Positions 23,597-42,483 are shown, counted from the first letter of the stretch. The stretch is DNA of 64,000 bases from Escherichia coli (GCF_046105845.1 NZ_CP151004.1); one strand, 5' to 3'. The notes: generated from the sequence alone by a model not told the origin. Translations and numbers: made by a program.

Positions 23597-24298
23597 CTGA
23601 ACACACCGGCACAGCTCTCTTTGCCACTTTATCTTCCTGACGACGAAACCTTTGCAAGTTTCTGGCCGGGGGATAACTCCTCTTTACTGGCCGCGCTGCA
23701 AAACGTGCTGCGTCAGGAACATAGCGGTTACATCTATCTCTGGGCACGCGAAGGCGCGGGGCGCAGCCATCTGCTGCACGCGGCTTGCGCGGAATTGTCG
23801 CAGCGTGGCGATGCGGTGGGCTATGTCCCGCTGGATAAACGCACCTGGTTTGTTCCGGAAGTGCTCGACGGTATGGAGCATTTGTCGCTGGTCTGTATCG
23901 ACAACATTGAGTGTATTGCAGGCGATGAGTTGTGGGAGATGGCGATTTTCGATCTCTACAATCGAATTCTGGAATCGGGCAAAACACGGTTGTTGATCAC
24001 CGGCGATCGTCCACCGCGGCAGTTGAATCTGGGATTACCGGATCTCGCGTCGCGACTCGACTGGGGGCAGATCTACAAATTGCAGCCACTTTCTGATGAA
24101 GATAAGTTGCAGGCGCTACAGTTACGCGCGCGTTTGCGTGGTTTTGAACTGCCGGAAGATGTGGGGCGTTTCTTGCTGAAGCGGCTCGACAGAGAAATGC
24201 GCACGTTATTTATGACGTTGGATCAGCTGGATCGTGCGTCGATTACCGCGCAACGTAAGCTGACCATTCCGTTTGTGAAAGAGATTCTGAAACTGTAG
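23597..24298 (+). CDS. hda: DnaA-inactivating protein Hda (non-AUG CTG start per established annotation)
   Basis: 233 aa from [19 protein letters not shown]; AAA+ motifs; ORF track extends 15 codons upstream. Confidence 0.85.
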
Positions 24299-24301
24299 AC
24301 A

Positions 24302-24364
24302 AGACGTTTATTGTCGGATGCGCACCCATAGTATTCGTCGGCCGGATAAGACGCGGCAAGCGTC
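24302..24364. repeat. REP (repetitive extragenic palindromic) element(s)
   Basis: gccggataagacgcggcaagcgtcgcatccggc. Confidence 0.6.
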
Positions 24365-24403
24365 GCATCCGGCAATGTGCTTCAACTAGCGATGGAGCAC
24401 TTC

Positions 24404-24763
24404 TTAACCCACGATTTCCAGCACCTGCTCCGGTGGACGACCAATTCGCGCTTTGCCATTCGCGACCACAATCGGGCGCTCCATTAGCTTCGGATTATCC
24501 ACCATTGCCTGAATCAGCGCCTCTTCGCTAAGCGAACTGTCAGCCAGGTTCAGTTCTTTATAAAGATCCTCTTTCTGGCGCATCAATTCACGAGCGCTAT
24601 TCATCCCCAGCATTTTCAGCAAATCACGCAGCGTTGCCGCATCGGCGGGTGTCTCAAGGTAGAGCACCACTTCTGGCTCCACGCCGTTTTCTTTCAGCAG
24701 GTTTAGCGTTTCCCGGCTCTTTGAACAGCGTGGGTTATGGTAGATTTTTACCTGTTTGGTCAT
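24404..24763 (-). CDS. yfgD: ArsC-family reductase YfgD
   Basis: 119 aa; MTKQVKIYHNPRCSKSRETL catalytic Cys motif. Confidence 0.9.
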   Translation of the reverse strand: MTKQVKIYHNPRCSKSRETLNLLKENGVEPEVVLYLETPADAATLRDLLKMLGMNSARELMRQKEDLYKELNLADSSLSEEALIQAMVDNPKLMERPIVVANGKARIGRPPEQVLEIVG

Positions 24764-24783
24764 TGTTCTTCCTTTAATGCGAA

Positions 24784-26247
24784 TTACATCTTGGTATAAG
24801 GCTTAAAGCGTTCCTGCAGCTGGCGCAACTGGTCGATGCGCGCATCGTAACGCGCTTGTTGCAGGCTGCCTAATTTCACCTGCGAACTGGCGCTACTCAA
24901 CAAGGAAATGGCCTGATCGAGTCGCCCGGCGAGCGCATAACCTTCTGCTCGCGCAGCCAGTTCCTGATCGCGGTTATTTAGCGCCGCCTCCGCCTGTGCC
25001 AGTAAATCCCAGCCATTGCTGTCATCTTTATTATTAAAGGTGTAGCGATTGAGAATATTGGCCGCTTCTTGTGGTTGACCGCCTTGCAGATAAGCGTTCG
25101 CCAGGTTGAGCTGCAACACCGGATTGGTGCGCAAATCGCGGGCATTTTTCAGGCGATTGATAGCGTCATTGGCTTTGTTTTGCCCAAGATCGATATCGGT
25201 AGCCAGATCGAGATACCATGCATTGCCAGGTTCTGCCGCCAGTAACGGTTGCAGCGTTTTACGCGCTTCGTCGTATTTATTGGCTTCCATCGCCTGTAAA
25301 GCACGACCATATTGCGCCGCTCGTTGCTGACGAACGTTTCCTTTCGCCCATTCATCCAGCAAATCACTGGTGAGCTGGTTACGTCCGGAATTATACATCC
25401 CCAGTGTGCGCGCTTTCGCCAGATAGAAATCTTCCGACGACTGCACCACCATCGGGCGCATCTGATTAGCACGGTTGCGGGCATCTGCCAGACGACTTTC
25501 CGGCAATGGGTGAGTCAATAAAATTTCCGGCGGACGCGAGGAGTAACGCGCCTGATCGAGCAATTTTTCGAGGAAGGTCGGCATCGCCTGCGGATCGAAT
25601 CCTGAGCGTTGCAGCACCTGAATACCAATGCGATCCGCTTCCTGTTCATTTTGCTGGGTGAAGCTGATCATCCCCTGGCGAGTTCCCGCCAGTGTACCGG
25701 TCAGCGCTGCCATCCCCGCCTGCGGACTGGCCATCGCCAGTAAAATAGAACCTAACGCGCCGACCCAGGTCAGCGGCGCGCTGCGCTGTTGATCTTCCAT
25801 CGCTCGCGCCAGGTGACGTTGGGTGACGTGGGAGATTTCGTGCGCCATAACTGAAGCCAGTTGACTTTCGTTATCGGAATAACGGAACAGGGCAGAGTGC
25901 AGCACCACGTTGCCGCCAAAGAAAGCAAAGGCGTTAATTTCGTCGTTGTTGATCAGAAAGAAATGAAACGGTGTCTTAACCGAATTGGCATGCGAAACCA
26001 GACGCATCCCCAGCGAATTAATATATTGCGTTAACAGCGGGTCATTAATTAACGGCGCGCTGCCGCGTAGCTGGCGGACATAATAGTCGCCCATCTGCAT
26101 TTCCTGGCCAATGGAAAGCGTGCTTCCTGCGGAGGTTCCCATATCCGGCAAGGTGTCTGCGCTGTCGGCAAACGCCGGGGCTACCTGACCAATGGTCATA
26201 GCAGCAATGAGGGTTGCAACCAGGTTTTTTTTCAACTGCCTGAACAT
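24784..26247 (-). CDS. bepA: Periplasmic beta-barrel assembly-enhancing protease BepA (YfgC), M48 peptidase plus TPR
   Basis: 487 aa; signal peptide, HEISH zinc motif. Confidence 0.95.
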
Positions 26248-26459
26248 AACCTCTATCCTGTATTTCTGAAGATAGTCATTTGACCGATACTGTGAAATAT
26301 CGTTCCCACCGCGCCGCCTTTGAGTGTAACGGCGAAGATTAGCCCACTCAAATGACTTTTCAGTTTCCTGAATCCGTCATAAAAAGCGAAGTCTTTTTTG
26401 TGACATTTCGATACAATTGCGGATCGCAATCCCGCTCTTGAGGTTCAGGGAAGGTCTTT

Positions 26460-27521
26460 ATGCTCGAAATGTTGATGCAATGGTATCGCCGCCGTTTTAG
26501 CGACCCGGAAGCGATTGCCTTGCTGGTTATTTTAGTTGCCGGATTTGGCATTATCTTTTTCTTTAGTGGCCTGCTTGCTCCACTGTTGGTGGCTATTGTG
26601 CTGGCCTATTTGCTGGAATGGCCAACCGTGCGCCTGCAATCTATTGGCTGCTCCCGCCGCTGGGCGACGTCGATTGTATTGGTGGTTTTCGTCGGTATAT
26701 TGCTACTGATGGCGTTCGTGGTATTGCCTATCGCCTGGCAGCAGGGCATCTACTTAATTCGCGATATGCCGGGGATGCTCAATAAGCTTTCTGACTTTGC
26801 CGCCACGTTGCCGCGCCGCTATCCGGCGTTGATGGATGCGGGCATTATTGATGCAATGGCCGAAAATATGCGCAGTCGGATGCTGACCATGGGCGATTCG
26901 GTGGTGAAAATTTCCCTCGCCTCGCTGGTCGGTTTGCTGACCATTGCCGTCTATCTGGTGCTGGTACCATTGATGGTCTTCTTCCTGCTGAAAGACAAAG
27001 AGCAGATGCTGAACGCCGTTCGCCGGGTGCTGCCACGTAACCGTGGACTGGCAGGACAGGTGTGGAAGGAGATGAATCAACAAATCACCAACTATATCCG
27101 CGGCAAAGTGCTGGAGATGATCGTGGTGGGGATTGCCACCTGGCTGGGATTCTTACTCTTCGGGCTGAACTATTCGCTGCTGCTGGCTGTGCTGGTCGGC
27201 TTCTCGGTACTTATTCCGTACATTGGCGCATTTGTGGTGACCATTCCGGTGGTTGGCGTGGCGCTATTCCAGTTTGGTGCTGGCACGGAATTCTGGAGCT
27301 GCTTCGCGGTGTATCTGATCATTCAGGCGCTGGACGGCAACCTGTTAGTACCTGTGTTGTTCTCCGAAGCGGTTAACCTGCATCCGCTGGTCATTATTTT
27401 ATCAGTAGTGATCTTCGGTGGTTTGTGGGGATTCTGGGGCGTATTCTTCGCCATTCCATTGGCGACGCTGATCAAAGCCGTGATCCACGCCTGGCCCGAT
27501 GGGCAAATCGCGCAAGAATAA
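26460..27521 (+). CDS. perM: AI-2E family permease PerM (YfgO)
   Basis: 353 aa polytopic membrane protein; K-12 synteny. Confidence 0.9.
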   Translation: MLEMLMQWYRRRFSDPEAIALLVILVAGFGIIFFFSGLLAPLLVAIVLAYLLEWPTVRLQSIGCSRRWATSIVLVVFVGILLLMAFVVLPIAWQQGIYLIRDMPGMLNKLSDFAATLPRRYPALMDAGIIDAMAENMRSRMLTMGDSVVKISLASLVGLLTIAVYLVLVPLMVFFLLKDKEQMLNAVRRVLPRNRGLAGQVWKEMNQQITNYIRGKVLEMIVVGIATWLGFLLFGLNYSLLLAVLVGFSVLIPYIGAFVVTIPVVGVALFQFGAGTEFWSCFAVYLIIQALDGNLLVPVLFSEAVNLHPLVIILSVVIFGGLWGFWGVFFAIPLATLIKAVIHAWPDGQIAQE

Positions 27522-27525
27522 TCTT

Positions 27526-27558
27526 CAGCCCGACGAACTGTTTCGCCGGGCTGATTTT
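27526..27558 (+). terminator. Terminator between convergent perM and focB
   Basis: cagcccgacgaa ctgt ttcgccgggctg then attttt. Confidence 0.5.
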
Positions 27559-28407
27559 TCAGGATTCCTGACGTAAATAAATAGCCCGATAACAAATACT
27601 CACCAGCACTGCACCGCCGATAATATTACCCAGCATCACCGGGAGCAGATTGGCGGTAATAAAATGGCTGACCGTCAGTGCCGGAAAATGGTCTGCGCTA
27701 CTGTGCGCCAGTTGCCAGAAGGAGGTAGGGGCGAAATGGCGAATGGCAATGGCGAACGGAATCACAAACAAATTGGCGATACAGTGCTCAAAGCCACTGG
27801 CGACAAACAGGGTGATGGGCAAAATCATGGCGACGATTTTGTCGCATAATGAACGTCCGCAATAACTCATCCACAGCGCCAGACAAACCATCAGATTGCA
27901 CATAATGCCGAGGCTGACTGATTCAGTAAATGTATGATGCATTTTGCCCTCGGCGCAGTGTAAAACCGCGACTCCCCACATCGCGTTTTCACTCATCACC
28001 AGCCCGGAAAACCAGATTAACAAACTGAAACAGGCAATACCTGCCAGATTACCGCAGGCCACCAGAAGTGCATTAATCAGCCATGTTCGCCAGCTAATAA
28101 CGCCCCGACTTTTTGCCATCACCGTCATTACCGACGAGGTGAACAGGCTGGTGCCGCAAACCGCCAGCAAAATAAAGCCGAGCGTAAAGCAAAGGCCTCC
28201 CACCAGATGGGTTAATGCCTGTGAAGACGGGGCATCGGCGATAACGGTAAGGTAAAAAGTAAATCCGATCGCCATAAACACGCCTGCGGACATCGCCATT
28301 AAAAAGACCGACACTTTGCTGCGGGCAATTTTATGGGCGGCAATCCGTTCAGCGATTGCCGCTTTTCTGGCGCTCAACTGCAAGTCGAAAGAGAGTTTGT
28401 TTCTCAT
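27559..28407 (-). CDS. focB: Formate channel FocB
   Basis: 282 aa FNT-family membrane protein, last gene of hyf operon. Confidence 0.9.
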   Translation of the reverse strand: MRNKLSFDLQLSARKAAIAERIAAHKIARSKVSVFLMAMSAGVFMAIGFTFYLTVIADAPSSQALTHLVGGLCFTLGFILLAVCGTSLFTSSVMTVMAKSRGVISWRTWLINALLVACGNLAGIACFSLLIWFSGLVMSENAMWGVAVLHCAEGKMHHTFTESVSLGIMCNLMVCLALWMSYCGRSLCDKIVAMILPITLFVASGFEHCIANLFVIPFAIAIRHFAPTSFWQLAHSSADHFPALTVSHFITANLLPVMLGNIIGGAVLVSICYRAIYLRQES

Positions 28408-28428
28408 GAATACTCCTGCAAAAGCAGA

Positions 28429-30441
28429 TTACAACACCTCGCGAACCGAGATCCCCAGCCGCTGCATTCGTGACAGCAGCGTGGTGCGCTTCATCCCTAA
28501 TCGCGTCGCCGCGCCACGTGGCCCGGCAACAATGCCATTGGTTTCTCGCAATACCTGAACAATGCGCTGACGTTCTTCTTCGTCATTCTCTGGCGTCGTC
28601 GGGTGCAGCAACTGCGCCATTGAACTGCGAAGCGCTGAATCTTCATTTAGCGTCGGCAGTAAACGGCTTTGTCGGACATTTAGATGTAAATTCAGACTGT
28701 TACCGCGAGTCAGTAGTACCGCTCGCTCAATCACGTTTTCCAGCTCGCGCACGTTGCCCGGCCAGTCCCACGACATCAACTGGCGTAGCGCCTCGGTCGG
28801 GATGGCGTCAATTGCGCGATTCATATGGCGCGCCATTTTTTGCGTGAAATGCTTTGCTAAAAGAGGGATATCTTCCGGACGGTCGCGCAGTGGCGGCAGT
28901 TCCAGTGGGAAGACATTCAGGCGATAAAAGAGATCGCTGCGAAACTGGCGATCTTCAACCATTTGCCGCAAATCACGGTTGGTGGCGGCAATGACTTTGA
29001 CATTTACCGGGATCGTTCTACTCCCGCCGAGACGCTCAATCTCCCGTTCCTGCAATACGCGCAGCAGTTTAGGCTGAAGTTCTAACGGCAGATCGCCAAT
29101 TTCATCGAGAAACAACGTGCCGCCATCGGCAATTTCAAAACGACCACGATGGGTATTAATCGCACCAGTAAACGCCCCTTTGTCATGACCGAATAACTCA
29201 CTTTCCAGAAGACTGGCGGGGATGGCAGCGCAGTTGATTTTGACCAGCGGCTTGTCGCGTCGCGGGCTAAGTTGATGGATCGCTCTGGCGATCACCTCTT
29301 TGCCGGTTCCGGTTTCACCACAAATCAACACCGTACTGTCGCTCTTCGCCACAATATCTACCTGCTGGAGCAGGTCTTCCATTGCCTGGCTTTGATAGAT
29401 AATGTCACCGACGCCCAGATTCGAAAGGAGCTGCTCGCTAAGCTGGTGGTTTTCTTGCTGCAAGCTTTCCTGCAAATCGGTCATGCTGCGCCAGGCATCG
29501 GCATTGCCAACGGCAATAGCGATGCGATCGGCAATATGTTGTAGTAGTTGGCAGTTTTCCTCACTAAAGAGAGTGGAAGAGGTATGCGCCAGCAACAATG
29601 CACCCGGTGTATGGTTGCCAAAGGTGAGCGGTATAAGGAGCGCAGATTCGCAGCCGTTAGATGCAAGTAAGTGTAATAACGGGTCGCGTTGCCAGAGAAA
29701 CAGATCGTCTGCACGGTGCGTCAAGGTCGGTTGTCGGGTTTGTAGCGTTTGTGTCAGCAATACACTTTCGCCAGGCATACAGCGTGGCAGACACGCACAA
29801 TGTGAGGCAGAAAGATCGCTGCACCACAGGCTGAACTTCTCGTTCTTTCGATGATCGCCCAGTACCATACTGACTGAAGCCAGACCGAAAAAATGATGGA
29901 TCTCACGAGCGACGTCAGCGATCAGATCGTCGAGATCAAGATGTGACAACACTGCATTAGTGATATCCACCAGTACCCGATGATGATCGCGATCTTTCTC
30001 CAGCAAACGCAGCGCCACCTGCTGTTCTTCATCATTGAGCCATGATTGCAGAACCGGAGTGATTATGTGTGCCAGCCAGTTAAACAGTGTGCAATCCTGG
30101 GGAGTAAAACGACTGCCGTGGGTGCGAATAAAGCGTAGCTCCGCCATTCCACTACTGCCGAGAAGGACGGCGTGGCGCGAATAATCGACCATCTCACCCT
30201 GATACTCTGTTGTTGCCGTCACATCGCTGCCATCATCATGGTAGCGGTAATAGAAGTTGCTTTTGAGAACATGCAGTTCAATAAGTTGTACCGGGCTGAA
30301 CGGCGGCGGCAGCGGGATGAAGGCGCGTAATAAAGACGCCTTGCCGTGTTTCTGCGCTAACCGCTCCGCGAGCATTCCGTTTACCGCTTCAATTGTTATT
30401 CCTTGCGGCGGGGCAAACATCGCCTCGTCTGACATAGCCAT
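28429..30441 (-). CDS. hyfR: Sigma-54-dependent transcriptional activator HyfR
   Basis: GAF plus AAA+ ([14 protein letters not shown]) plus HTH; about 670 aa. Confidence 0.92.
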
Positions 30442-30470
30442 CAACAGTCCTTATTAATGAGAAATCCTTC

Positions 30471-30884
30471 TCACGCAATTTTTCTGGCCATCAGATAGAT
30501 GGCCGGTTCCTGCACAATTTCATCCAACAGATGAATGAATTGAATGCTACGCGCCTGCCACACAGACGTCGCGTCATCCGCCAGTGGCGCGAATGCCCGG
30601 GTCAACAGGGCGGTGTGGCTGGTGTCAATAACAATCTCACCAAAAGTCATCACCCCCAGCATCTTACGTCGGGCTTGCTCCTCTTCGACCAGTGCAAGCC
30701 AATCTTCGTATTCCGTCAGTGGGCAGCGGAAGGCGACATTCAGACAATCAATCACGCCAACGTGATGGCCGATAGCCAACGAGTAATACATTACCTGGGA
30801 GCTGTGTTCCGGCATCTCGTCGCTACTGGCGATAAATTTTTTTCGCAGCGTCCAGAAAACAATTTCCCCGCACGCCTCAGCCAT
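30471..30884 (-). CDS. hyfJ: Hydrogenase-4 component HyfJ
   Basis: 137 aa; synteny. Confidence 0.9.
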
Positions 30885-32186: not shown

Positions 32187-33902
32187 TTACTTCAGCGGCG
32201 AACGGTTACGATCAATGCCGTAGCGTTCGATCTCTTTATACGGCACGGTTTTTGACTGGCGCTTGCGCACATCAACCAGCGTCACACGGTCGGTACAGGA
32301 GTAGCAGGGATCAAGGCTACCGATAATTAGCGGTGCGTCAGAAACGGTATTGCCGCGCAGCATGTAACGCAGCACTGGCCAGTTGGCGTAGGTGGCGGCA
32401 CGACAGCGCCAGCGGAACAATTTTTGGTTATCACCGAGCATGCTCCAGTGCACGTCTTCACCGCGTGGCGCTTCAACAAAGCCCAGCGCGAATGCGTGAG
32501 GTTTATAGCTAAAGCCTTCGGTCAGCAGTGGGGTATCCGGCATGTTGTCGAGGGCAAATTCCAGCATTGCCAGCGAATCAAACGTCTCTTTGACACGGAC
32601 CATCACGCGGGAGAAGACATCGCCGCCGGTAAAGGTAAACAGCGTTTTGGGAATATTGCCGTAGTCGGCGTAGGGGTGATCAAAGCGCAAATCACGGGCA
32701 AAACCACTGCCGCGGATCAGCGGCCCGACAGGGCTATAATCACGGGCGATTTGTCGGTCGAGAATGCCAATGCCCTGAGTGCGTTGTTCCATATTCGGCG
32801 TGGCAAGCAGCATCTCTACCAGCTCCGACACGTCGGCGCGCATCTCGCGCACCAGTTTCAGCGTTTGCAGACGTTGCTCTTTGAGAATATCGCGGCGAAC
32901 ACCACCAATCAGATTCAGACCGTAGGTTTTACGCGACCCGGTCAGCAATTCCGCCATCGTCATCGACTTTTCCCGCACGCGGAAAAATTGCATAAAGCCG
33001 GTATCAAATCCAACAAAATGGCAGGAGAGGCCAAGGTTGAGCAAATGACTATGCAGCCGTTCGACTTCCAGCAGAATCGAGCGAATAGTATGCGCTCGTT
33101 GCGGCACCTCAATCCCCAGTGCATTTTCAACCGAGTTGGTATAGGCCACACTGTGGGCAAAACCGCAAATCCCACACACGCGGTCGGATAAGAAGGTCAC
33201 TTCGTTGTAGCCCATCCGCGTTTCTGCCAGTTTCTCCATGCCGCGATGGACATAAAACAGGCGGTAATCAGCATCGACAATTTGCTCGCCATCCACAAAC
33301 AAGCGGAAGTGACCTGGTTCATCGGAGGTGATATGCAGCGGGCCGACAGGGATCACCCGCGCATCGCTGTTGCCCTCGTTGATAAACGGATACGTTTCGG
33401 TATCAGTCGTCGGTTCTGGGCGCAGTCGATAATCCATCGCGTCTTTGCGCAGCGGATGCATATCTTCCGGCCAGTCATCGGGCAACACCAGCCGACGCTG
33501 ATCCGGCAGGCCAACCGGAATCAGCCCGTACATATCGCGAATTTCTCGCTCGCCCCAGACCGCGGCAGGGACGCGCGGTGTGACTGACGGAAACTCCCGA
33601 CTGTCGGCATCGACCAGTGCCTTCACCACAATCCAGCATTTTTCGGCCCCTTCCATAGAAAGGGCGTAATAAACCGCGTAATGACCGTTAAGTGTCCGCT
33701 CGTCGTTGCCAAACAGGACCGGAAGCCAGCCATCATGTTGATAATAAAGATAATGTACAACGTCAGGCAGCAGATTGATTTTCACCGTAATGGTGACCTG
33801 TTCAGGCGTTTGTCGCTCTTCATCCAGCACCGCGCCGGGGAACTGCGTTTTCAGGGCGGCGAGAATCGCTTCGCCACGATTTGACGATGAATTAACGTTC
33901 AC
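32187..33902 (-). CDS. hyfG: Hydrogenase-4 large (NiFe) subunit HyfG; start codon uncertain
   Basis: RxCGxC N-terminal and DPCxxC C-terminal NiFe ligand motifs; start placed at GTG (VNVNSSS), ORF track extends further. Confidence 0.85.
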
Positions 33903-35472
33903 TGTGTTTCTCCGAAACAGATGCGGTGCCTGAAGGCAAAAAATCATGCCAGGTGCTACGTTGTGCAGGCAGGTCGTGCGTCCCTGAGAGGACTATAGTG
34001 GAAGCGCCTGCCAGGATCCTGATGACAGGTTGTGGAATATGCGTTCCCATCGCCAGCATCATGACCAGCAGAATCACCATTGGCGAGGTGGTCAACCAGC
34101 CAAGTTCACCCCGGTTAACGGCCTGCGGCGGTTTCGCCATTAACACCCGCGCAGCCATCCGTACCAGGCCCGCCAGCACCAGCGTTAACAGCAATAACAG
34201 CAGGACGATAAGCAGCAGATGATTACGCGCCAGTCCGGCGGTAACGGTCATAAATTCGCTAAGAAAAATGTTGAAGGGCGGCATCCCGGCCAGCGCCAGC
34301 GCACCGCCGCCAAACAACACGGCGGTAAATGGCATGATTTTGAGCATCCCACAGACGACGTTGAGATCGCGCGTGCCGTACTTGAGCAGTACATTGCCGG
34401 AACCGCAGAACAACAGCGTTTTGGCCAGACTGTGGTTTAAGGTGTGCAGCAGCGCGGCAAAAATTCCCAGCGGCCCGCCAATGCCTAACGCCACCGCGAC
34501 CAGTCCCATGTTCTCCACGCTGGAGTACGCCAGCAGACGCTTAATGTCCCGCTGTACCAGAATGAAAAATGCCGCCACGGCAACCGACAACATGCCGAAG
34601 ATGAGCAACAACCGGTTGGGGAAATCGCTGCCGATGGCCTGGCAAATAATGATGTAATAGCGAATCAGCACCAACAGCGCGCAGTTCAGCAATACGGCGG
34701 AGAGCAGGGCGCTGACCGGACTCGGCGCTTCACTGTGAGCATCCGGCAGCCAGGCGTGCATGGGAAATAGCCCGGTTTTGGTGCCAAAGCCAATTAGCAC
34801 AAACACAAAGGCCAACAGCATTAATGTTGGGTCAAGCAAGGACGATTGCTTAAGAACCTCGCTCCAGAATATCGCCATTTCTGCCTGCGGCATAACGCTG
34901 GCGGCGTTGGCGTATACCAGCACGGTACCGAACAGACCAAAAGCGACACCAACAGTACAAATAATGATGTACTTCCATGCAGCTTCCAGCGATGAACGCT
35001 GACCGTAAATGCCTACCAGAAACGCCGAGCTTAAGGTGGTGGCTTCGATCGCCGCCCACATCACAATCAGGTTATTGCTGGTAACAACCAGCAGCATGGT
35101 GAACAAAAACAGATGGAAGAAACCGTAGTAATCGCACAGCGTAACGGGTGAAAGCTCGCCGTGCTCCACTTCATGACGCATGTAGCCAATCGAGTAAACA
35201 CCGGTGAGAAAGCCAATCACACCAAGAATGGCGAGGAACAAACCGCCCAGACCATCAATATGAAGCCACAGTCCCGCAGCGAATATTTCTCCCGCATCAG
35301 CGGCAGTTTGGACCACCCAGAGTGCCAGAATCAGCAGCAGTGTGATCCCTAAGCTATGTAATACTGTCACCGCGCAAGTCGCAGAGTGCCCCCGTTTCCG
35401 GCAGGCAAAACAGAGCAGCGAAAAAAGCAGCGGCGTGAGCAGGAGTAAAGCGAACATCACAGAATAACTCAT
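33892..35472 (-). CDS. hyfF: Hydrogenase-4 membrane subunit HyfF (NuoM/N-like antiporter module)
   Basis: 526 aa polytopic. Confidence 0.93.
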
Positions 35473-35476
35473 CTCA

Positions 35477-36127
35477 TTATCCCTTCAGCGCGGTCAAGTT
35501 GTTCACGTCCAGCGTGCCGTGGGTACGCCATATTTTTCTTGCCAGTAACACCATCACAATGACGGCGAAGATGGCGTCGGTAGCGATACCAATTTCCACC
35601 AGTTCCGGTGCACGCCAGGCTAGAAGCGCCAGCACCAGATGGGAGCCGTTTTCCATCAGGCAGTAACCAAAGATTTGCCGCAGGATATTGCGCTGGCTGA
35701 CAATGCACAGCAGGCCAAGCAGAAAATGACCTAACGCTACCGCCAGCGCCGGTTTCAGCCCGGTAGCCATCGGTAGCTTCACGGGCTGAACGACAAATGC
35801 GCAAAGCAGGACAATTAACGCCGCGAGCAGTGCCATCATTGCCGGACCGAATAACGCTTTTTCCGGGATATTCTGGGGAATATTTCGTGCAGCGTAAGTC
35901 ATGATTAACGGTACCAGCAGCACTTTGGTGATAAAGGCGCTGGCGGACCAGATCAGCAGTTGCTCTGCGGCGAACAGGCACGAGAGAGTGGCGAAAATAG
36001 ACACCAGCACCAGCGACTGGCAGGCGTAAAATCCGCATGACAGGCGATAGCTTTTGACGCTAATCACAAACAGCGATGTCAGCATCATCAGTCCCGCCAG
36101 ATTATTTACGATCATAGAACCGGTCAT
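35477..36127 (-). CDS. hyfE: Hydrogenase-4 membrane subunit HyfE
   Basis: 216 aa polytopic. Confidence 0.92.
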
Positions 36128-36138
36128 TCATCATCTCC

Positions 36139-37578
36139 TTACTGCAACCAGGTCGCGGCGATTACGCTGGAAATCAGCGACATCACAATCAGTACAATCA
36201 ACACCAGGCGCATTGATCCTGGCAGCGGTGCGGCATCGGCGACGGCCTCGCTCGGTTTGCCAGGCACGACGCGACCAAACCAGCGAATAAACCAGGCGAA
36301 ACTGGCGACCGATTCAATCATCAGCAGAATCATGGCGGGCAGCAGGATCCAGTACTCCACTGACAACGCAAAACCGGCGGCAAACAGCGGGAATTTACTG
36401 AAGAAGCCGTTGAACGGCGGTACGCCGGTAATCGCCAGCGCTGCCACGCAGAAACCCACGCCTGGCAACGGCAGGGTGTGCAATACGCCACGCAGACGCG
36501 GCAACAAGCGCGTGCCGCAGCTGTAACTCAGCGCACCTGCTACAAGGAAAAACAGGCTTTTAGCGAACGCGTGGTTGACGATGTAGGCGATGCTACCCTC
36601 CAGCGCCAGCCGCGAGCCGAAGATGGAGAGCGACAAGCCGAAGAACATCCAGCCAAGTTGAGTGATGGTCGACCAGGCCAGCAACCGCTTCATATCCTGC
36701 TGTGGCAAATACATCAGGAAGCCGTAAAGAATGGTGACCAGTGCCATAACCATGCCAACGCCGCCAATCACATGCGGGATATTGCCGCCGTCGATAATGG
36801 CACGGGCAAAAATGTAAACGCCCACTTTCACCATCGATGCGGCGTGGAGATAGGCGCTGATCGGTGTTGGCGCTTCCATTGCGTCCGGTAGCCACGCTTG
36901 CATCGGTAGCTGGGCCGATTTCCCCCACGCGGCAAACAGGATGCCGCCATAAACCAGATAACGTGCGTCGCCGTGTAACTCGCTCATCGCGCTAAGCGCA
37001 AACGTTCCGGTCTGCAAAAACAGCGTGGCGGCGGCAAGATACAACCCCAGCGAACCGATATGAGTGATAAGTAACGCTTTTAGTGCTGAACGCTGCGCTT
37101 TATCGCTCTGGTAATAACTGATCAACGCCCAGGAGCAGCCGCCCGTAATTTCAAAAAACAACAACTGACCGAGCAGCGTCGAGGAGAGTACCAGTCCCGC
37201 CATCGCGCCGATAAAAACCAGCAAAAATGCGTAATAACGATTCGTGCCGTTATGCGGGTGTTCGCGATTTTTATCCGTCAGATAACCCGTGGAGTAGATC
37301 GTGACCAGCAAACCGAGAAACACCACCACAAACAGAATCAGCGTACTCACGCGATCAATGACCAGGCCAAACAACGCCACATCCCCCACGTTGACCAACG
37401 TCAACGTGACGGCAACTTTATCGGCCTGATAAAACGCGGAGATCAGTGACAACATGCACAGCGTGGTCAGCGCGGCGAACAAAACCCCCCATTCGGCGGC
37501 CCGACGTTGTGGCGAAAACGAAACGACCAGTGCGCCGATAAAAGGCAGCATTAACGTCGTCAGAGCAAGATTTTCCAT
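36139..37578 (-). CDS. hyfD: Hydrogenase-4 membrane subunit HyfD (NuoL/M-like)
   Basis: 479 aa polytopic. Confidence 0.93.
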   Translation of the reverse strand: MENLALTTLMLPFIGALVVSFSPQRRAAEWGVLFAALTTLCMLSLISAFYQADKVAVTLTLVNVGDVALFGLVIDRVSTLILFVVVFLGLLVTIYSTGYLTDKNREHPHNGTNRYYAFLLVFIGAMAGLVLSSTLLGQLLFFEITGGCSWALISYYQSDKAQRSALKALLITHIGSLGLYLAAATLFLQTGTFALSAMSELHGDARYLVYGGILFAAWGKSAQLPMQAWLPDAMEAPTPISAYLHAASMVKVGVYIFARAIIDGGNIPHVIGGVGMVMALVTILYGFLMYLPQQDMKRLLAWSTITQLGWMFFGLSLSIFGSRLALEGSIAYIVNHAFAKSLFFLVAGALSYSCGTRLLPRLRGVLHTLPLPGVGFCVAALAITGVPPFNGFFSKFPLFAAGFALSVEYWILLPAMILLMIESVASFAWFIRWFGRVVPGKPSEAVADAAPLPGSMRLVLIVLIVMSLISSVIAATWLQ

Positions 37579-37594
37579 ATTCCGTCAGTGCTCC

Positions 37595-38542
37595 TTACAG
37601 ACCGGTTAACCAGAAGACCCATGCAAGCGCAGCAAGGCTGAAGCCAAGCCAGGTCACATGGTGAATGAGTAAAAAACGCCCGCGTGCCAGCGTGTTTTCT
37701 GCGATTGAGGCCAGTACAAAAATCAGCAAAACCTTGAGCAGCGTAACGACAAGAGAAGTCAGCAGGCAGGCGAGAGAAAGTTCTTGCGCGCGCCCAAAGG
37801 GCAGAAACAGGGCCACAAACAGTGCTGCCATCACGACCTGTTTCAGCCCCAGCCCCCATTTCGCCAGCGCCAGCCCGGCACCGGAATATTCGGTCAGCGG
37901 GCCTTCCTGTAATTCCTGTTCTGCTTCAGCAACATCAAAGGGAATTTTTCCCATCTCAATGAAGCAGGCAAAACCACAGGCCAGTAACGCCAGTACGGTG
38001 GTTAGCGGCGAGTTCCAGCCCGTCGCCAGCGTCTTGCTGATCATCTCGATATGCGTGGAATCCGCTATCAGCGCCAATACCAGCAGTGAGAGAATGAGCA
38101 TGGGTTCGACCAGAATGCCGAGCGTCAACTCGCGACTGGCACCGACTCCCGCAAACGGGCTTCCGGTATCCAGCCCTGAAAGAGCAAAGAAAAAACGAAA
38201 CAGGGCAAGAAGATAGATAAGGGTGATCAGATCGCCGCCGCCCGCAAAAGGGGAAACGGTAATAAATAGTGGCAGGGCCATCGCCAGCACCAGCATGCTG
38301 CTGATTAATACCCACGGCATCAGGCGGAACATCAGACCTGAAGATGTCGGCGCAACTTCCTGGCGTTTAAACAGTTTGTGGATATCGCGATAATCCTGCC
38401 AGATCCCCGGTCCGCGACGGGAGTGCATTCGCGCGCGTATCTGCCGGGAAATACCCGTAAAAAGCGGGGTTAGCATCAGCAGAATCACGGCCTGTGCTAA
38501 CGCAAAAATGACCAGATATCCGTCGCAAAGAGTTTGTCTCAT
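37595..38542 (-). CDS. hyfC: Hydrogenase-4 membrane subunit HyfC (NuoH-like)
   Basis: 315 aa from MRQTLCDGYLVIF. Confidence 0.9.
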   Translation of the reverse strand: MRQTLCDGYLVIFALAQAVILLMLTPLFTGISRQIRARMHSRRGPGIWQDYRDIHKLFKRQEVAPTSSGLMFRLMPWVLISSMLVLAMALPLFITVSPFAGGGDLITLIYLLALFRFFFALSGLDTGSPFAGVGASRELTLGILVEPMLILSLLVLALIADSTHIEMISKTLATGWNSPLTTVLALLACGFACFIEMGKIPFDVAEAEQELQEGPLTEYSGAGLALAKWGLGLKQVVMAALFVALFLPFGRAQELSLACLLTSLVVTLLKVLLIFVLASIAENTLARGRFLLIHHVTWLGFSLAALAWVFWLTGL

Positions 38543-38552
38543 GGTGATTTCC

Positions 38553-40571
38553 TTAGACGGCAATAGCGATTAGCAGCACAACCAGTGCGGCGACCACATA
38601 CAGGCAATAGAGACGAAAGTCGCCGCTTTGCAGATGCTGTATTTCTTTGGCCAGCCGTTGGGTGGCGCTCACGATGGGGCGGATCACCCGCTCATCCCAG
38701 AAGGGTTCTGTGCTCTGAGCCCTGGCGGTGACATGCGCAAGACCTTTGTTCAGCCTCAGCGTAGGGTCGAGCTGTTGTCGTAGACGAAATAGCGCACAAA
38801 AGACCACACGCAGCGGCTGCATCACGCCATTGCCTGACGGGGCCATCGCATTTTCCCAGCCGTAGCCGCATGCCCAGGCATCTCCTGTGCGACGAAACGC
38901 TGCGCGGCGCGAACGACACCACAGCCAGTAAAGGCCAGGCAGCAAAGGCATCGCCAGTAGTAACAGCAACAGTAATGAGGGAGTGACCCGTGTATGAAAC
39001 GTGCCGGGTACAAGTGCTATTCCGCTGGCGACAGTGACGGGAGGGGTATTGGTAAACGCATGGGCAATGTGCATTATCTTCGGTGCCAGCCAACTGGCAC
39101 TAAGCGCAATTAATATGCAGAGTGCCGCGAGCAGTAGCATGGCGACGATCATCGTATTTGGCACTTCCTGTGCCTCTTCAGCGTGTGTACTGCGCGGCGC
39201 TCCACAGAAAGTAATACCGTACATTTTGACGAAGCACATTACTGCCAGCCCACCAGTGACTGCCAGCATCACCATAGCAATAGGACCCGCAAGTTGTAGC
39301 GCTACGGCTTCCACACGACTTAGTGAGAACAGCGACTGCCAGGTGTACCATTCGCTGATAAAACCATTCAGCGGAGGAATGGCTGATATCGCGAGGCAAC
39401 CAATCAGGCATGCTGCGGCTGTCCACGGCATACGTTTCGCCAGTGCCCCCATTTTTTCCATGTCGTGGGTATGCAAACGCGAAATAATCGCACCCGCGCC
39501 GAGAAACAGCAGCCCTTTGAACAGCGCATGGTTGAGCAGATGAAACAGCGCGCCGAGCAGTCCAACAACGGTGAGCAGCGGGTCGTGCAGTGACAGACCG
39601 ACCATCGCCACACCGACCGCCAGCAAAATAATGCCGACGTTTTCGACGGTACTCCAGGCCAGCAGCCGTTTGATATCCTGTTCCGCCAGCGCATACAGCA
39701 CGCCCAGGAGCGCGGAGATTGCGCCGATCGCCATCACCAGAATGCCCCACCACAGCGGCAAACCCGTTTGCGCCAGCAGGTCCATCGCTACTTTCAGGAT
39801 GCCGAAAATACCGATTTTGACCATTACGCCAGACATCAACGCCGAAGCGTGCGATGGTGCGGCAGGGTGAGCGCGTGGCAACCAGCTGTGCAACGGCATC
39901 ATCCCGGCTTTCGCGCCAAAACCGAAGAAGGCCAGCAGGAACACCGCCGACGCCAGCCCCGGAGAAAGTGAAAGCGTGCGGAAACTGGCAAAATCGAGGC
40001 TGCCGCTTTCGCGCCACATCAGCAAGAAGGCGATCATAATCAGCACCGATCCGGCGTGGGCGATAAAAAAGTAGAGCATGCCAGCGTTGATCGACGTTTT
40101 ATCCTGCCTGGCAATGACCAGAAACCAGGAAGACAGCGACATCATTTCAAACAGCACGATGAACCAAAAAGCGTTGTCCATCACCAGCAGGGCAACCATC
40201 GATGCGATGAAAATATTCATAAAGAAGCCCATCGCCGCCGCGCCTTTGCCCTCGTATTCGCGCATATAAGTCAATGAATAGAGCGAACAAACTACCACCA
40301 GCAAGGAGATAACCAGCACCATAAATGCCGAGAGGCTATCCATTCGCAGGGTTAAATCGGCAAAGTCAAAAGGGGTTGCAAAACGGGCGACTAAAGTTAC
40401 GCCTGCATGTAATTGCGTAATTCCGCTGATGATGCCAATCACGCCGCCCACCAGCGATGTGATGCCGGAAAGCTTAATAGCCAGTCTGTCCAGACCGAGT
40501 AAAAACAGCGAAGCCAGACTGGCAAACAGATAGAGAATCAGCGACCAGGTTAATAATTGCAGGGCATCCAT
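38553..40571 (-). CDS. hyfB: Hydrogenase-4 membrane subunit HyfB (NuoL-like)
   Basis: 672 aa polytopic. Confidence 0.93.
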   Translation of the reverse strand: MDALQLLTWSLILYLFASLASLFLLGLDRLAIKLSGITSLVGGVIGIISGITQLHAGVTLVARFATPFDFADLTLRMDSLSAFMVLVISLLVVVCSLYSLTYMREYEGKGAAAMGFFMNIFIASMVALLVMDNAFWFIVLFEMMSLSSWFLVIARQDKTSINAGMLYFFIAHAGSVLIMIAFLLMWRESGSLDFASFRTLSLSPGLASAVFLLAFFGFGAKAGMMPLHSWLPRAHPAAPSHASALMSGVMVKIGIFGILKVAMDLLAQTGLPLWWGILVMAIGAISALLGVLYALAEQDIKRLLAWSTVENVGIILLAVGVAMVGLSLHDPLLTVVGLLGALFHLLNHALFKGLLFLGAGAIISRLHTHDMEKMGALAKRMPWTAAACLIGCLAISAIPPLNGFISEWYTWQSLFSLSRVEAVALQLAGPIAMVMLAVTGGLAVMCFVKMYGITFCGAPRSTHAEEAQEVPNTMIVAMLLLAALCILIALSASWLAPKIMHIAHAFTNTPPVTVASGIALVPGTFHTRVTPSLLLLLLLAMPLLPGLYWLWCRSRRAAFRRTGDAWACGYGWENAMAPSGNGVMQPLRVVFCALFRLRQQLDPTLRLNKGLAHVTARAQSTEPFWDERVIRPIVSATQRLAKEIQHLQSGDFRLYCLYVVAALVVLLIAIAV

Positions 40572-41188
40572 TAGCGTTGCTCCTGAGTGAGGGAAAGGGG
40601 ATCCTCCTCGCCATTGGCAAACCAGCTTGCGGCAAGGCGCTGTTTTTCTTTCATCTGACGTTGCAGGCTATCGTCGGTGATCAGCCGTAACGCCTGATTC
40701 GGGCAAGCGCGAACGCAGGCCGGACCTTCTGGCAAGAAATCACACAGGTCGCATTTCACCGCGACGGTCTGGACACCCGGTTCCCAGCGCAGCAAAGCAT
40801 GTTGTGTTGGCGCGTTTTCTTCGCCGTCTTTGAGTGAGCCTTCAGCCTGAAAAACATATTGCGCAGGGGCATTCACCGGACGGCTTCCTGAAGCGCTGAT
40901 TGCGCCAAATGGGCAGACCACGGCGCAAAGCTTGCAGCCAATACAGAGGCTTTCGTTGAGTTGGATCGCATCATCCCTCTGGGAGATGGCATTGACCGGG
41001 CAGACCTGCAGGCAAGGGGCTTCCTCACAGTGATGACACACGACAGGGGCAGTGAGTGTTGACGTCTTCGCCAGGGCCAGGCGCGGGTGTTGCTGTAAAC
41101 CTTGCGTTTTATGCACGTCCGAACAGGCAGCGAGACAGGTATTACATCCTGTACACCACAGTGGTTCGGCCACCACAAAGCGGTTCAT
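40571..41188 (-). CDS. hyfA: Hydrogenase-4 ferredoxin subunit HyfA
   Basis: 205 aa from MNRFVVAEPLWCTGC; multiple 4Fe-4S Cys clusters. Confidence 0.9.
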   Translation of the reverse strand: MNRFVVAEPLWCTGCNTCLAACSDVHKTQGLQQHPRLALAKTSTLTAPVVCHHCEEAPCLQVCPVNAISQRDDAIQLNESLCIGCKLCAVVCPFGAISASGSRPVNAPAQYVFQAEGSLKDGEENAPTQHALLRWEPGVQTVAVKCDLCDFLPEGPACVRACPNQALRLITDDSLQRQMKEKQRLAASWFANGEEDPLSLTQEQR

Positions 41189-41228
41189 GTCGGCTCCTTG
41201 AAAATGATATGAAACATTGCATTTCATA

Positions 41229-41246
41229 TTGCATAAAGGATGCCAG
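41229..41246 (-). promoter_or_regulatory. Sigma-54 (-24/-12) promoter of the hyf operon
   Basis: Minus-strand cTGGCAtcctttaTGCAa matches TGGCAC-N5-TTGCA; about 30-40 bp upstream of hyfA. Confidence 0.55.
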
Positions 41247-41440
41247 TCTTATTAATTTAATATATTCAATAAGTTATGAATTAACTGGATTCTGAACGGT
41301 ACAAAAATGATGGTCATTAACGTTCAGCAAAAAATGGATTCGACACCCGTGTCGCAGGGGAAAGTGAGAATGTGATCTTGGTCACGAGAAGTGAGGTGTG
41401 CTGACCACAAGCGCAGCCAGCACGGAATGGAGCAAAGTAA

Positions 41441-41911
41441 TCAGGCGTGTTCTTTCAGCCAGTTCAGCACAACGTCGTGGTGATTGCTGGTTTTGAAATC
41501 GTCAAAGACATGTTCGATTTTGCCATCAGCGTCAATCAGGAAGCTGATGCGATGAATACCATCGTAGGTTTTGCCCATGAAGGACTTTTCACCCCAGACG
41601 CCGAATTGTTCGCACACCTGGTGGTCCTCATCAGACAGGAGCGTAAAGTTAAGCAGCTCTTTTTCCGCAAAACGGGAGAGTTTTTCGGGTTTATCGGTGC
41701 TGATACCCAGCACATCAACGCCCGCTTTTTTCAACTCATCCATGTTATCGCGTAAGCCGCAGGCCTGTACGGTACAGCCGGGGGTCATGGCTTTCGGGTA
41801 GAAATAAACCAGAACACGCTGTCCCTGGAAGTCGGTCAAATTAACTTGTTCTCCGTCTTGATCCGGCAAGCTAAATTTCGGTGCGATATCACCGGCTTTC
41901 AGTGGATTCAT
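41441..41911 (-). CDS. bcp: Thiol peroxidase Bcp (peroxiredoxin)
   Basis: 156 aa; PGCT active site. Confidence 0.95.
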   Translation of the reverse strand: MNPLKAGDIAPKFSLPDQDGEQVNLTDFQGQRVLVYFYPKAMTPGCTVQACGLRDNMDELKKAGVDVLGISTDKPEKLSRFAEKELLNFTLLSDEDHQVCEQFGVWGEKSFMGKTYDGIHRISFLIDADGKIEHVFDDFKTSNHHDVVLNWLKEHA

Positions 41912-42483
41912 TACTTAACTCCATCCTGTTCATCATGTTGGGAATAATTGACGACGTTAATACTGCCTTGTGCATTGAGTTCTGTACATAGGGCTTTGAA
42001 TGCTTGCTCAATATTTGCTGAGTCCGCAGATGCGGGGCTGTGGGCGGTTATCTGAATATGCAACTGCGCAGCCCGTTTATTTTCAGCAGGTTGCGTGCGC
42101 GACACCAGCTCCGCAATGTTCATATGATGCGCGTCGAAAAGTGCTGTGAAGCGTTCAATTAAATGCGGGGAGTCTGCCACATCGACCTGAACCCAGACAG
42201 ATGCTGGCATTGGCGGACGCGGACGCGCCGTCGTGCGCTTCATCACGATTAAAAGATCCAGCTCGGCACCTTTCAACGGTAACGTTGATTCAATCAGAGT
42301 AATGGCATTCCATGAACCGGAAAGCAGCATGATAAACGTGAACTCTTCTCCCAGCATCGCCAGGCGACTGTCTTCAATATTACAGCCGCAACTACTGACA
42401 TGACGGGTGATGGTGTTCACAATTCCAGGGCGATCGGCACCCAACGCAGTGATCACCAGATAATGTTGCGATGACAGTGTCAA
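41911..42483 (-). CDS. gcvR: Glycine cleavage system regulator GcvR (TTG start)
   Basis: 190 aa from (M)TLSSQHYLVITALGADRPG; ACT domains. Confidence 0.88.
   Translation of the reverse strand: MTLSSQHYLVITALGADRPGIVNTITRHVSSCGCNIEDSRLAMLGEEFTFIMLLSGSWNAITLIESTLPLKGAELDLLIVMKRTTARPRPPMPASVWVQVDVADSPHLIERFTALFDAHHMNIAELVSRTQPAENKRAAQLHIQITAHSPASADSANIEQAFKALCTELNAQGSINVVNYSQHDEQDGVK

Follow-up and report, generated by a model that had tools for sequence, protein, structure and literature searches.

Initiation at CUG is already described for hda of Escherichia coli K-12; the finding was published by Su'etsugu et al. (2008; J Biol Chem 283:36118), as cited in EcoGene 3.0, which itself gives CTG as the hda initiation codon (PMC3531124). 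The locus considered here is the same gene with the same codon, 180-nt start region and 233-aa product in a different strain, and what we add to the known CTG is a cross-species count, in which the codon is found at 87 of 87 Enterobacterales loci. A CTG start has been confirmed in one other K-12 gene, yfjD (EcoGene 3.0); it was likewise found by conservation together with inspection of the ribosome-binding site, but yfjD lies outside the region analysed here. The AUU starts of infC and pcnB resemble that of hda in that a rare, weak codon opens a product needed in small or controlled amounts, although the codon is AUU and not CUG. The infC gene is autoregulated via discrimination by IF3; we know of no such autoregulatory loop for hda, and the likeness to infC is one of analogy only. 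The general phenomenon, annotated or longest-ORF starts that lie upstream of the codon used, is that of Nakahigashi et al. (2016; PMC4909307), according to whom 95 K-12 genes had their starts revised between 2006 and 2014, hda among them. That work was experimental and genome-wide, whereas we transfer the K-12 result to a different strain, with comparative checks. The start positions given below were all previously known.

The DNA analysed (64,000 nt, hereafter the window) is a segment of the E. coli chromosome running from der to maeB. Its longest-ORF track opens each ORF at the first ATG, GTG or TTG after a stop, and the reference starts were those of the curated K-12 MG1655 models (NC_000913.3) aligned onto the window. 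The original prediction held that hda (CTG 23597), gcvR (TTG 42483), purM (GTG 21176) and narQ (GTG 56629) use non-ATG starts, and that the longest-ORF starts of uraA, dapA, purC, ypfH, nudK, hyfA, hyfC, hyfG and tktB are upstream in-frame extensions. Both parts are matched by the K-12 mapping: for 13 of 13 named genes the curated start falls on the predicted coordinate, with an identical codon in K-12 and the window. PGAP models of three close strains have the shorter forms throughout, including CTG for hda, and in no case did a curated K-12 protein, or a PGAP model of these three strains, correspond to the longer ORF. The supporting argument from known protein lengths holds for hda, gcvR, purM and narQ and fails for hyfG; product lengths equal those of K-12 for the named genes except hyfG, where the window product exceeds that of K-12 by 16 aa (571 vs 555 aa). 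Every gene listed in the prediction stands, yet the list was incomplete, since eight further genes (der, yfgJ, guaB, ppk, upp, hyfR, bamC and ypfN) carry upstream extensions. GTG starts also occur in yfgH, yfgG and hyfG, besides purM and narQ. The accompanying warning about automatic re-annotation is unnecessary for PGAP, which places the starts correctly, but apt for other gene callers, which misplace those of hda and GcvR; in other genera such callers give hda lengths of 241, 241, 225, 238 and 235 aa. The prediction is thus correct and ordinary, its starts being already documented for E. coli K-12.

A strain whose start regions had diverged would make the K-12 starts non-transferable. The window is only 97.6–99.1% identical to the best complete genomes and its hyfG differs in length from that of K-12, but over 180-nt regions spanning the 13 starts the identity to K-12 is 98.9–100%, with the start codon unchanged in all, and the hyfG difference is internal to the gene. 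We give this explanation virtually no chance of being right; a strain-specific change at the starts, tested by the K-12 alignment, was unsupported.

Among the 50 genes mapped, 21 have an upstream in-frame ATG, GTG or TTG before the next stop. Start-like triplets are as frequent as stops (213 vs 212) over the 90 nt preceding the mapped genes, and therefore about 50% of genes would be expected to carry an extension. The observed frequency is about what chance predicts, and the extensions are a mechanical product of the ORF definition; the CTG of hda is the sole unusual start among these genes. The duplex with the anti-Shine–Dalgarno sequence is better at the curated than at the longest-ORF start in 18 of the 21 genes, with a tie in two, and its mean energy at curated starts is −6.3 kcal/mol vs a background of −2.1. 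At guaB the upstream ATG 4414 pairs better than the curated start does, and in ppk, hyfR and bamC neighbouring alternative codons pair as well, or nearly as well, as the curated ones. These four genes would be natural candidates for dual initiation, in which the upstream and the curated codon are both used in some genes and give two isoforms, and ribosome-profiling studies have found that some genes of E. coli are initiated at two sites. The upstream codons are, however, unconserved, and we regard dual initiation as improbable. With high confidence, these are ordinary core genes of E. coli in which translation begins inside the longest ORF, past its first start-like triplet. The ribosome would choose the codon 4–9 nt past a Shine–Dalgarno (SD) sequence, and the upstream codons would be accidents in untranslated leaders, in promoters or in the gene upstream. 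Several belong to the SD of the true start itself (GTGGGGA in purM, GTGGAGA in narQ, GGAGTG in purC), and the upstream GTG of hda to a probable extended −10 promoter. Four of the genes use weak non-ATG codons, GTG in purM and narQ, TTG in gcvR and the rare CTG in hda.

The hda coding sequence (23597–24298, forward strand, 233 aa) opens at CTG 23597–23599, onto which the K-12 start maps and which PGAP also uses; the codon would be read by the initiator tRNA as formyl-methionine. The longest ORF (23552–24298, forward strand) opens at a GTG and encodes 248 aa. The SD GAGGT (23588–23592, forward strand) stands 4 nt ahead of the CTG and is unchanged in 81 of 81 unique sequences, with positions −1 to −4 variable; duplex energies are −6.9 kcal/mol at the CTG and −4.0 at the upstream GTG. 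The 87 loci comprise 80/80 Enterobacteriaceae species and 7/7 others, the latter taking in Dickeya and a Yersiniaceae member. The first base of the CTG is constant in 81/81, while 10 of the 11 four-fold degenerate sites of that alignment vary. Codon periodicity begins at the CTG: downstream it is 0.94/0.99/0.78 without gaps, and upstream it is absent, with 41 gap columns.

If the longest ORFs were the real proteins (Hda of 248 aa, GcvR of 212 aa and so on), the K-12 models would be too short. The 248-aa Hda is indeed a former K-12 annotation (2006 record), and the extensions are open in the window, as they must be by definition. Against this, extensions are broken in other genera by stops or frame-breaking indels, SD pairing is near zero at upstream codons, and profile models leave the extensions uncovered. 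For hda, no upstream in-frame canonical start exists in 46 of 80 species, a stop lies within 6 codons upstream in 28, and the in-frame start at −15 is kept in only 7, so that a long Hda is possible in only 7/80; in E. coli SCPM-O-B-8794 the extension contains a 1-nt insertion. The missing periodicity upstream of the CTG, ribosome profiling and the literature all favour the CTG. The reading of the longest ORFs as proteins is already largely refuted, and we hold it to be extremely improbable.

With initiation at the CTG, the β-clamp-binding motif QLSLPL would come close to the N-terminus, six residues in. Counted from the CTG the motif occupies residues 6–11, and counted from GTG 23552 it starts at residue 21; in Hda relatives of 40–55% identity the QL motif begins at residues 2–14 (mode 4), and a 64%-identical relative has a GTG three codons upstream. 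Downstream of the CTG no canonical start precedes residue 9, and the first one falls inside the motif or past it. The protein matches the NCBIfam equivalog profiles of Hda over their full length, scoring 476.6 bits against NF005982 (cut-off 268) and 281.4 bits against TIGR03420 (cut-off 194.8), and is 100% identical over 233 residues to Hda in PDB 5x06, the sequence of which, after the tag, begins as the CTG-started form. The crystal structure was built with residues 1–233, and Hda of K-12, identical to the protein encoded in the window, is a replication regulator, the regulatory inactivator of DnaA: together with the loaded clamp it promotes hydrolysis of DnaA-ATP (RIDA; PMC5397184). Tetracycline ribosome profiling (PMC4909307) files hda under class '3. 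2014', a label undefined in its text, from which we infer a class of genes with reads at the revised site only; a signal at that site alone would speak against two Hda isoforms. Initiation at the hda CTG itself rests on the K-12 literature, and the positions, conservation and SD pairing on the present analysis. In reporters, CUG initiation reaches 1–2% of that at AUG, and because CUG initiates poorly Hda is probably kept scarce. Such a dosage-limiting role of the codon is an inference; it is conceivable, though we are doubtful, that purifying selection has maintained CUG across the Enterobacterales as a dosage limiter.

The GTG of the longest hda ORF (23552–23554) lies in a conserved TGnTAAACT element, with TG at 23553–23554 and TAAACT at 23556–23561; GTG and element together span 23552–23561 (forward strand). 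Conservation upstream of hda follows this element, TG and TA.ACT being invariant and the flanking bases variable, a pattern that suggests an extended −10 promoter for hda; a consensus promoter scan called no promoter at the element. Readthrough from uraA could still place GTG 23552 on an mRNA.

The gcvR coding sequence (41911–42483, reverse strand, 190 aa) starts at TTG 42483–42481, a TTG in K-12 also, preceded by the SD AAGGA (42497–42493, reverse strand). The longest ORF (41911–42549, reverse strand, 212 aa, TTG) is opened by two tandem TTG codons (42544–42549, reverse strand), which have an SD energy of about 0 and are not a start. The curated TTG is kept in 8/8 genera together with a conserved AGGAA. 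In Cronobacter and Erwinia, in-frame stops at −10/−7 interrupt the extension and no alternative start is present; other genera carry frame-breaking indels of 1 nt and 13 nt between the tandem TTGs and TTG 42483. The profile NF008612 aligns over positions 1–189 of 189 to residues 23–211 of the long ORF, which puts its position 1 at the curated start. The extension is open in Salmonella and Klebsiella, where it holds a conserved block, LYAGFFYAFL, and taken alone this could point to a longer protein. GcvR forms of 210–212 aa with a common MLYAGFFYAFL are on record for Salmonella and Klebsiella oxytoca, the 212-aa forms being deposited at NCBI for Salmonella. These records favour the longer protein, and an extension open in several genera would also suit dual initiation; the broken frames, SD and profile boundary nevertheless place the start at TTG 42483.

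The GTG starts of purM and narQ are close to an upstream GTG that overlaps their own SD. In purM (AIR synthetase; 20139–21176, reverse strand, 345 aa, GTG 21176), the start region of which is identical in K-12 and the window, the ORF-track GTG 21191 (350 aa) overlaps GTGGGGA. The start GTG is conserved in 6/6, the upstream GTG is missing or out of frame in 3/6, and K-12 N-terminal peptides (MTDKTSL/TDKTSL) lie at the curated GTG in the rows covered of PMC13245402 Table S1. In narQ (54929–56629, reverse strand, 566 aa, GTG 56629; 1701 nt in PGAP) the ORF-track GTG 56644 (571 aa) overlaps GTGGAGA, the SD energy is −6.4 at the curated and −3.3 at the upstream codon, and residue 7 of the long ORF corresponds to position 2 of 565 in the NF008184 profile.

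The same pattern is seen where an ATG lies inside a longer ORF. uraA (22213–23502, forward strand, 429 aa) starts at ATG 22213, the ORF track at TTG 22171; the ATG is present in 74/75 species, any upstream in-frame start in only 12/75, and position 1 of NF007995 aligns at the curated start. dapA (42629–43507, forward strand, 292 aa; ATG 42629, ORF track TTG 42611) keeps its ATG in 8/8, with a stop at −4/−6 in four genera. In purC (44771–45484, forward strand, 237 aa; ATG 44771) the ORF-track GTG 44762 lies inside the SD GGAGTG, and the ATG is likewise kept in 8/8. The rows covered of PMC13245402 Table S1 place the K-12 N-terminal peptide MQKQAELYR at the purC ATG and N-terminal peptides of dapA, upp and der at their curated starts; the upp ATG is conserved across genera. 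In these rows the peptides of purM, purC, dapA, upp and der fit the curated starts only, which argues against dual initiation in these genes. ypfH (48619–49317, forward strand, 232 aa; ATG 48619, ORF track ATG 48595) keeps its ATG in 5/5 where the gene is present, with position 1 of NF008525 at the curated start and SD energies of −8.7 there and −2.2 upstream. For nudK (58882–59457, forward strand, 191 aa; ATG 58882, ORF track TTG 58855) position 1 of NF011585 aligns at the curated start (SD −5.9 vs −1.5 upstream), and for tktB (60729–62732, reverse strand, 667 aa; ATG 62732, ORF track TTG 62795) the TIGR00232 profile opens 3 residues past the ATG (SD −6.4 vs −2.0 upstream). PGAP agrees on all of the last three. 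We found no N-terminal peptide or ribosome-profiling record in the literature for gcvR, narQ, uraA, ypfH, nudK, hyfA, hyfC, hyfG or tktB; for the starts of narQ, nudK, tktB and the hyf genes, support comes from annotation, from the strength of SD pairing and from where the profiles begin.

The hyf genes lie on the reverse strand, and both K-12 and PGAP give the curated starts of hyfA and hyfC. For hyfA (40571–41188, 205 aa; ATG 41188, ORF track ATG 41227) the AegA/HydN/YgfT N-terminal profiles open at the curated start (SD −7.7 vs −1.5 upstream), and for hyfC (37595–38542, 315 aa; ATG 38542, ORF track TTG 38563) the SD energy is −6.0 vs −2.6 upstream, while the profile alignments do not decide between the two starts. 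The GTG 33902 of hyfG (32187–33902, 571 aa; 1716 nt in PGAP) overlaps the end of hyfF, and the ORF-track ATG 33947 falls within hyfF, with an SD energy of +0.6 vs −6.6 at the GTG.

The length of hyfG is the one point that deserves a further look. The difference from the 555-aa K-12 protein is an internal indel that leaves the start unaffected: a 48-nt segment (16 aa; 32700–32747, reverse strand), flanked by the 10-nt direct repeat GCCCGTGATT, has no counterpart in K-12. Its product aligns without gaps to HycE (7z0s_E) and to 49-kDa subunits of complex I (GPxxRxSG), a conserved motif that K-12 lacks. The long allele occurs in 2179 of the 4294 E. coli genomes possessing hyfG; K-12 and roughly half of the hyfG-bearing E. 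coli have a 48-nt in-frame deletion between the 10-nt direct repeats. In the window strain the large subunit of hydrogenase 4 is encoded intact, at 571 aa. Hydrogenase 4 of K-12 is inactive even with the operon under strong promoters. It is conceivable, though we are doubtful, that the 48-nt deletion cripples HyfG and accounts for this inactivity; if so, strains like that of the window would be predicted to have a working formate hydrogenlyase 2.

We aligned each curated K-12 start (the MG1655 gene model, NC_000913.3), flanked by a 60-nt leader on one side and 120 coding nucleotides on the other, to the window. The mapped starts, and the PGAP models with them, fell on the four non-ATG codons named in the original prediction, namely CTG 23597 for hda (233 aa), TTG 42483 for gcvR (190 aa), GTG 21176 for purM (345 aa) and GTG 56629 for narQ (566 aa). 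The corresponding longest ORFs, read from the first ATG, GTG or TTG after a stop, begin at GTG 23552 (248 aa), TTG 42549 (212 aa), GTG 21191 (350 aa) and GTG 56644 (571 aa) respectively. A mechanical ORF list reproduced the ORF track behind the prediction, including the longer frames of uraA, dapA, purC, ypfH, nudK, hyfA, hyfC, hyfG and tktB. These nine track starts are upstream extensions, as had been proposed, since the mapped K-12 starts fall downstream of them (ATG 22213, 42629, 44771, 48619, 58882, 41188 and 38542, GTG 33902 and ATG 62732 respectively). The start codons of all 13 genes are identical between K-12 and the window, and the PGAP models of three close strains have equal gene lengths, including a 702-nt hda that opens at CTG. 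The observation is confirmed and its interpretation supported. Both lists were right in their members and incomplete: der, yfgJ, guaB, ppk, upp, hyfR, bamC and ypfN are also extended, and hyfG, which starts at GTG, belongs with the non-ATG genes. The argument from known protein length breaks down for hyfG, which encodes 571 aa here versus 555 in K-12. The curated K-12 record already contains the whole finding, publication of the hda case dates from 2008, and we found no departure from these precedents.

Extended longest ORFs are no more frequent than chance. An in-frame ATG, GTG or TTG lies ahead of the next upstream stop in 21 of the 50 mapped genes; the 90 nt upstream of mapped genes contain as many start-like as stop trinucleotides (213 versus 212), so that a ‘start’ is expected ahead of the nearest upstream stop in about half of cases. 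The 50 genes use 43 ATG, 5 GTG (purM, narQ, hyfG, yfgH and yfgG), 1 TTG (gcvR) and 1 CTG (hda) codons. This is near the 82/14/4% share of ATG/GTG/TTG reported for well-annotated bacterial genomes, and the CTG of hda alone is unusual. The warning about automatic re-annotation holds wherever a longest-ORF rule or a caller that lacks CTG is used, either of which would give a wrong Hda in this strain; longest-ORF annotation would also lengthen ∼ 40% of the other genes. It does not apply to PGAP, the NCBI pipeline, which handles all of these cases correctly.

The codon aligned with position 23597 is CTG in 87 of 87 hda loci, sampled from 80 Enterobacteriaceae species plus seven found via gcvR neighbourhoods (including Dickeya and one member of the Yersiniaceae). 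Downstream of the CTG, conservation at the first, second and third codon position is 0.94, 0.99 and 0.78, respectively, with zero gaps, a coding signature; upstream the values are 0.75, 0.74 and 0.76, periodicity is absent and there are 41 gap columns. The motif GAGGT, four bases before the CTG, is invariant and the bases in between vary. An E. coli-like 248-aa Hda is possible in just seven of the 80 species. Of the 80, 46 lack any in-frame ATG, GTG or TTG from the upstream stop to the CTG, and in 28 the stop is at most six codons away. Downstream, no canonical in-frame codon occurs before residue 9, so that the first one falls inside or past QLSLPL (residues 6–11), the motif by which Hda contacts the β-clamp. 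Most species can therefore translate this motif only from the CTG. In more distant relatives of Hda (40–55% identity) the motif starts at residues 2–14, most commonly at residue 4, which suits the 233-aa protein and not the 248-aa form; the crystal structure of Hda covers residues 1–233. In a relative with 64% identity the aligned codon is TTA and the start is a GTG that lies three codons further upstream, so the CTG start is a feature of the lineage and not of the family. The closest analogues are yfjD, whose CTG start is the second confirmed one in K-12, and, as weak starts, the AUU codons of infC and pcnB.

EcoGene 3.0 (PMC3531124) states that hda initiates with CTG, as published in 2008. 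In a ribosome profiling study that used tetracycline (PMC4909307), hda figures in class ‘3. 2014’ of the genes that underwent revision from 2006 to 2014. The label is undefined in the text of that study, and we infer that it denotes reads only at the revised site; read this way, the profiling check suggested in the original prediction favours the CTG. Among the fetched loci, Cronobacter alone has hda called at 233 aa, the other calls being 241, 241, 225, 238, 235 and 235 aa. With 248 or 241 aa the clamp-binding motif becomes buried, and with 225 aa it is cut in two.

In reporter assays, CUG initiates at 1–2% of the level of AUG. Any change of its first base would create a stronger start codon, yet the C is invariant in all 81 sequences of an alignment in which 10 of 11 four-fold degenerate sites vary. 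The simplest reading of this pattern is that selection retains the CTG for its weak initiation and hence for a low yield of Hda. Hda is scarce and harmful in excess. That a weak CUG start is so strictly conserved on a replication regulator is compatible with a need to keep Hda scarce, and is the only notable biology of this set of starts.

The GTG at 23552, where the longest hda ORF begins, sits in TGTGgTAAACT, of which TG and TA.ACT (23553–23561, + strand) are invariant in 81 Enterobacteriaceae sequences while their neighbours vary. We suggest that TGnTAAACT is an extended −10 promoter, which would place the transcription start near 23568, downstream of GTG 23552. A consensus promoter and terminator scan around hda called nothing, no promoter being found because a −35 element is unrecognisable, so it is the conservation pattern that points to this assignment. 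Right after the uraA stop lies a hairpin, ACCGGGCAG-tgtt-GCTGCCCGGT (23507–23532, + strand), followed by just two T's; it is terminator-like and moderately conserved across species, and was not called by the terminator scan. The 12-nt sequence GTTGAGGTATCT is found in identical form just before the hda CTG (23585–23596) and the ypfJ ATG (45640–45651), both on the + strand, probably by coincidence. Escherichia sp. MOD1-EC7003 has an Hda 100% identical to that of the window and a different uraA leader.

The TTG of gcvR follows AGGAA in eight genera, from Salmonella to Erwinia. GcvR predictions of 210–212 aa exist in Salmonella and Klebsiella oxytoca and have ‘MLYAGFFYAFL’ in common, which might be taken as the conserved N-terminus of a longer protein. 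This candidate is ruled out because Cronobacter, Erwinia, Dickeya and Yersiniaceae carry stops and indels that break the frame. The upstream in-frame stop lies at 10 codons in Cronobacter and at 7 in Erwinia, with no alternative start there, and the DNA alignment contains 1-nt and 13-nt indels between the ‘LYAGFFYAFL’ block and the TTG; conservation of the block is therefore at the DNA and not the protein level. The DNA in question, TTGTATGCATGTTTTTTTTATGCTTTCC (a T-run plus TATGnT; 42520–42549, − strand), is conserved from Salmonella to Erwinia in the gcvR–dapA intergenic region, and ‘LYAGFFYAFL’ appears in the over-long predictions for this reason. Consensus promoter and terminator scans of the intergenic region gave no result, and no −35/−10 pair with legal spacing fits the block. 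A UUG start of gcvR was reportedly discussed by Ghrist and Stauffer in 1998.

Shine–Dalgarno (SD) pairing was calculated as the duplex energy of the 16S rRNA tail with positions −20 to −3. In 18 of the 21 extended genes the curated start pairs more strongly than the longest-ORF start, and the energy averages −6.3 kcal/mol at curated starts versus −2.1 kcal/mol at random positions. Pairing is equal at both starts in ppk and hyfR, whose two codons adjoin. Only guaB (+ strand) has the better SD at its longest-ORF start (ATG 4414, −7.3 kcal/mol, versus −3.0 kcal/mol at the curated 4483); start 4483 is favoured by both annotation pipelines and by the IMP dehydrogenase profile. Position 1 of the NCBIfam equivalog falls on the curated start of gcvR, narQ, uraA, ypfH, nudK and hyfA. 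The NCBIfam profiles of the other genes begin within a few residues of the curated start, those of purM, dapA, purC, hyfC, hyfG, tktB, der and guaB being domain-type profiles that begin a few residues inside the protein, and none covers an extension. The GTG of purM is conserved in six of six loci. The ATG of dapA, purC, upp, uraA and ypfH is kept in every genus that has the gene (for uraA, in 74 of 75 species), and the upstream codons come and go. N-terminal peptides from K-12 (2026 N-terminomics table, PMC13245402) map to the curated starts of purM (MTDKTSL... and TDKTSL..., at the GTG), purC (MQKQAELYR), dapA, upp and der. The INRI-seq supplements and those of the Ribo-RET preprint have no rows for hda, gcvR, narQ, uraA, nudK or tktB. 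For narQ, nudK, tktB and the hyf genes, both annotation pipelines, the strength of the SD and the boundaries of the profiles support the curated starts.

Start selection in these genes follows the textbook mechanism, in which the SD places the 30S subunit and initiation takes the closest codon that is acceptable. The spurious upstream codons fall into three kinds. Some lie inside the true ribosome-binding site (GTGGGGA in purM, where the upstream GTG forms part of the SD, GTGGAGA in narQ and GGAGTG in purC), and the TTG immediately before the ATG of bamC and hyfR also belongs here. Others are triplets within the preceding gene (hyfG, hyfC), and the third kind lies in leader or promoter DNA. 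The start of tmcA (46530, + strand) is unsettled, with 671 aa in K-12 and the NRZ14408 annotation and 667 aa in strain 1190; its N-terminus is poorly conserved in other genera, in several of which the aligned codon is a non-start.

The length difference in hyfG (32187–33902, − strand), which encodes the large subunit of hydrogenase 4, is due to an internal 48-nt indel at 32700–32747 (− strand), bounded by the 10-nt direct repeat GCCCGTGATT; K-12 is without these 48 nt. The 16-aa segment aligns gap-free with HycE (7z0s_E, formate hydrogenlyase structure) and with the 49-kDa subunits of complex I, so the K-12 form is derived, having lost a conserved motif in frame. Of the 4,294 complete E. coli genomes with hyfG, 2,179 carry the long allele, each allele thus accounting for about half, and most of the remaining genomes align over 123 instead of 171 nt. 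A 2020 study (PMC7654741) could not get K-12 hydrogenase 4 to yield hydrogen, even with its promoter replaced, and the passages of it that were searched make no mention of the deletion. The deletion could bear on this unexplained inactivity. It may matter more than the start codons to those working on E. coli hydrogenase 4, and is the sole lead that we consider worth following.

The 64 kb of E. coli chromosome in the window begin with the end of bamB and with der and stop after the first codons of maeB; they read in the reverse direction relative to MG1655 (about 2,578–2,638 kb). The window is matched by 5,425 of 5,426 complete E. coli genomes, with best identities of only 97.6–99.1%. Rfam and tRNA scans over the whole window found no match. 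A 50-aa hypothetical protein between yfgG and pdeF (WP_000017552.1, ∼ 13101–13253, + strand) is annotated by PGAP in close strains and has no counterpart in the K-12 record. K-12 gene order is kept throughout, except that two genes (3.9 kb) are inserted between guaA and yfgI. The adjacent GmrSD-like genes of this insertion (within 7981–11210, both + strand) encode proteins of 426 aa (GmrSD_N and DUF7834) and 650 aa (GmrSD_N and GmrSD_C). The pair is missing in K-12 and strain 1190, is found in strain B27 and others, where it is annotated as ‘DUF262 domain-containing protein’, and probably constitutes a modification-dependent restriction or defence island.
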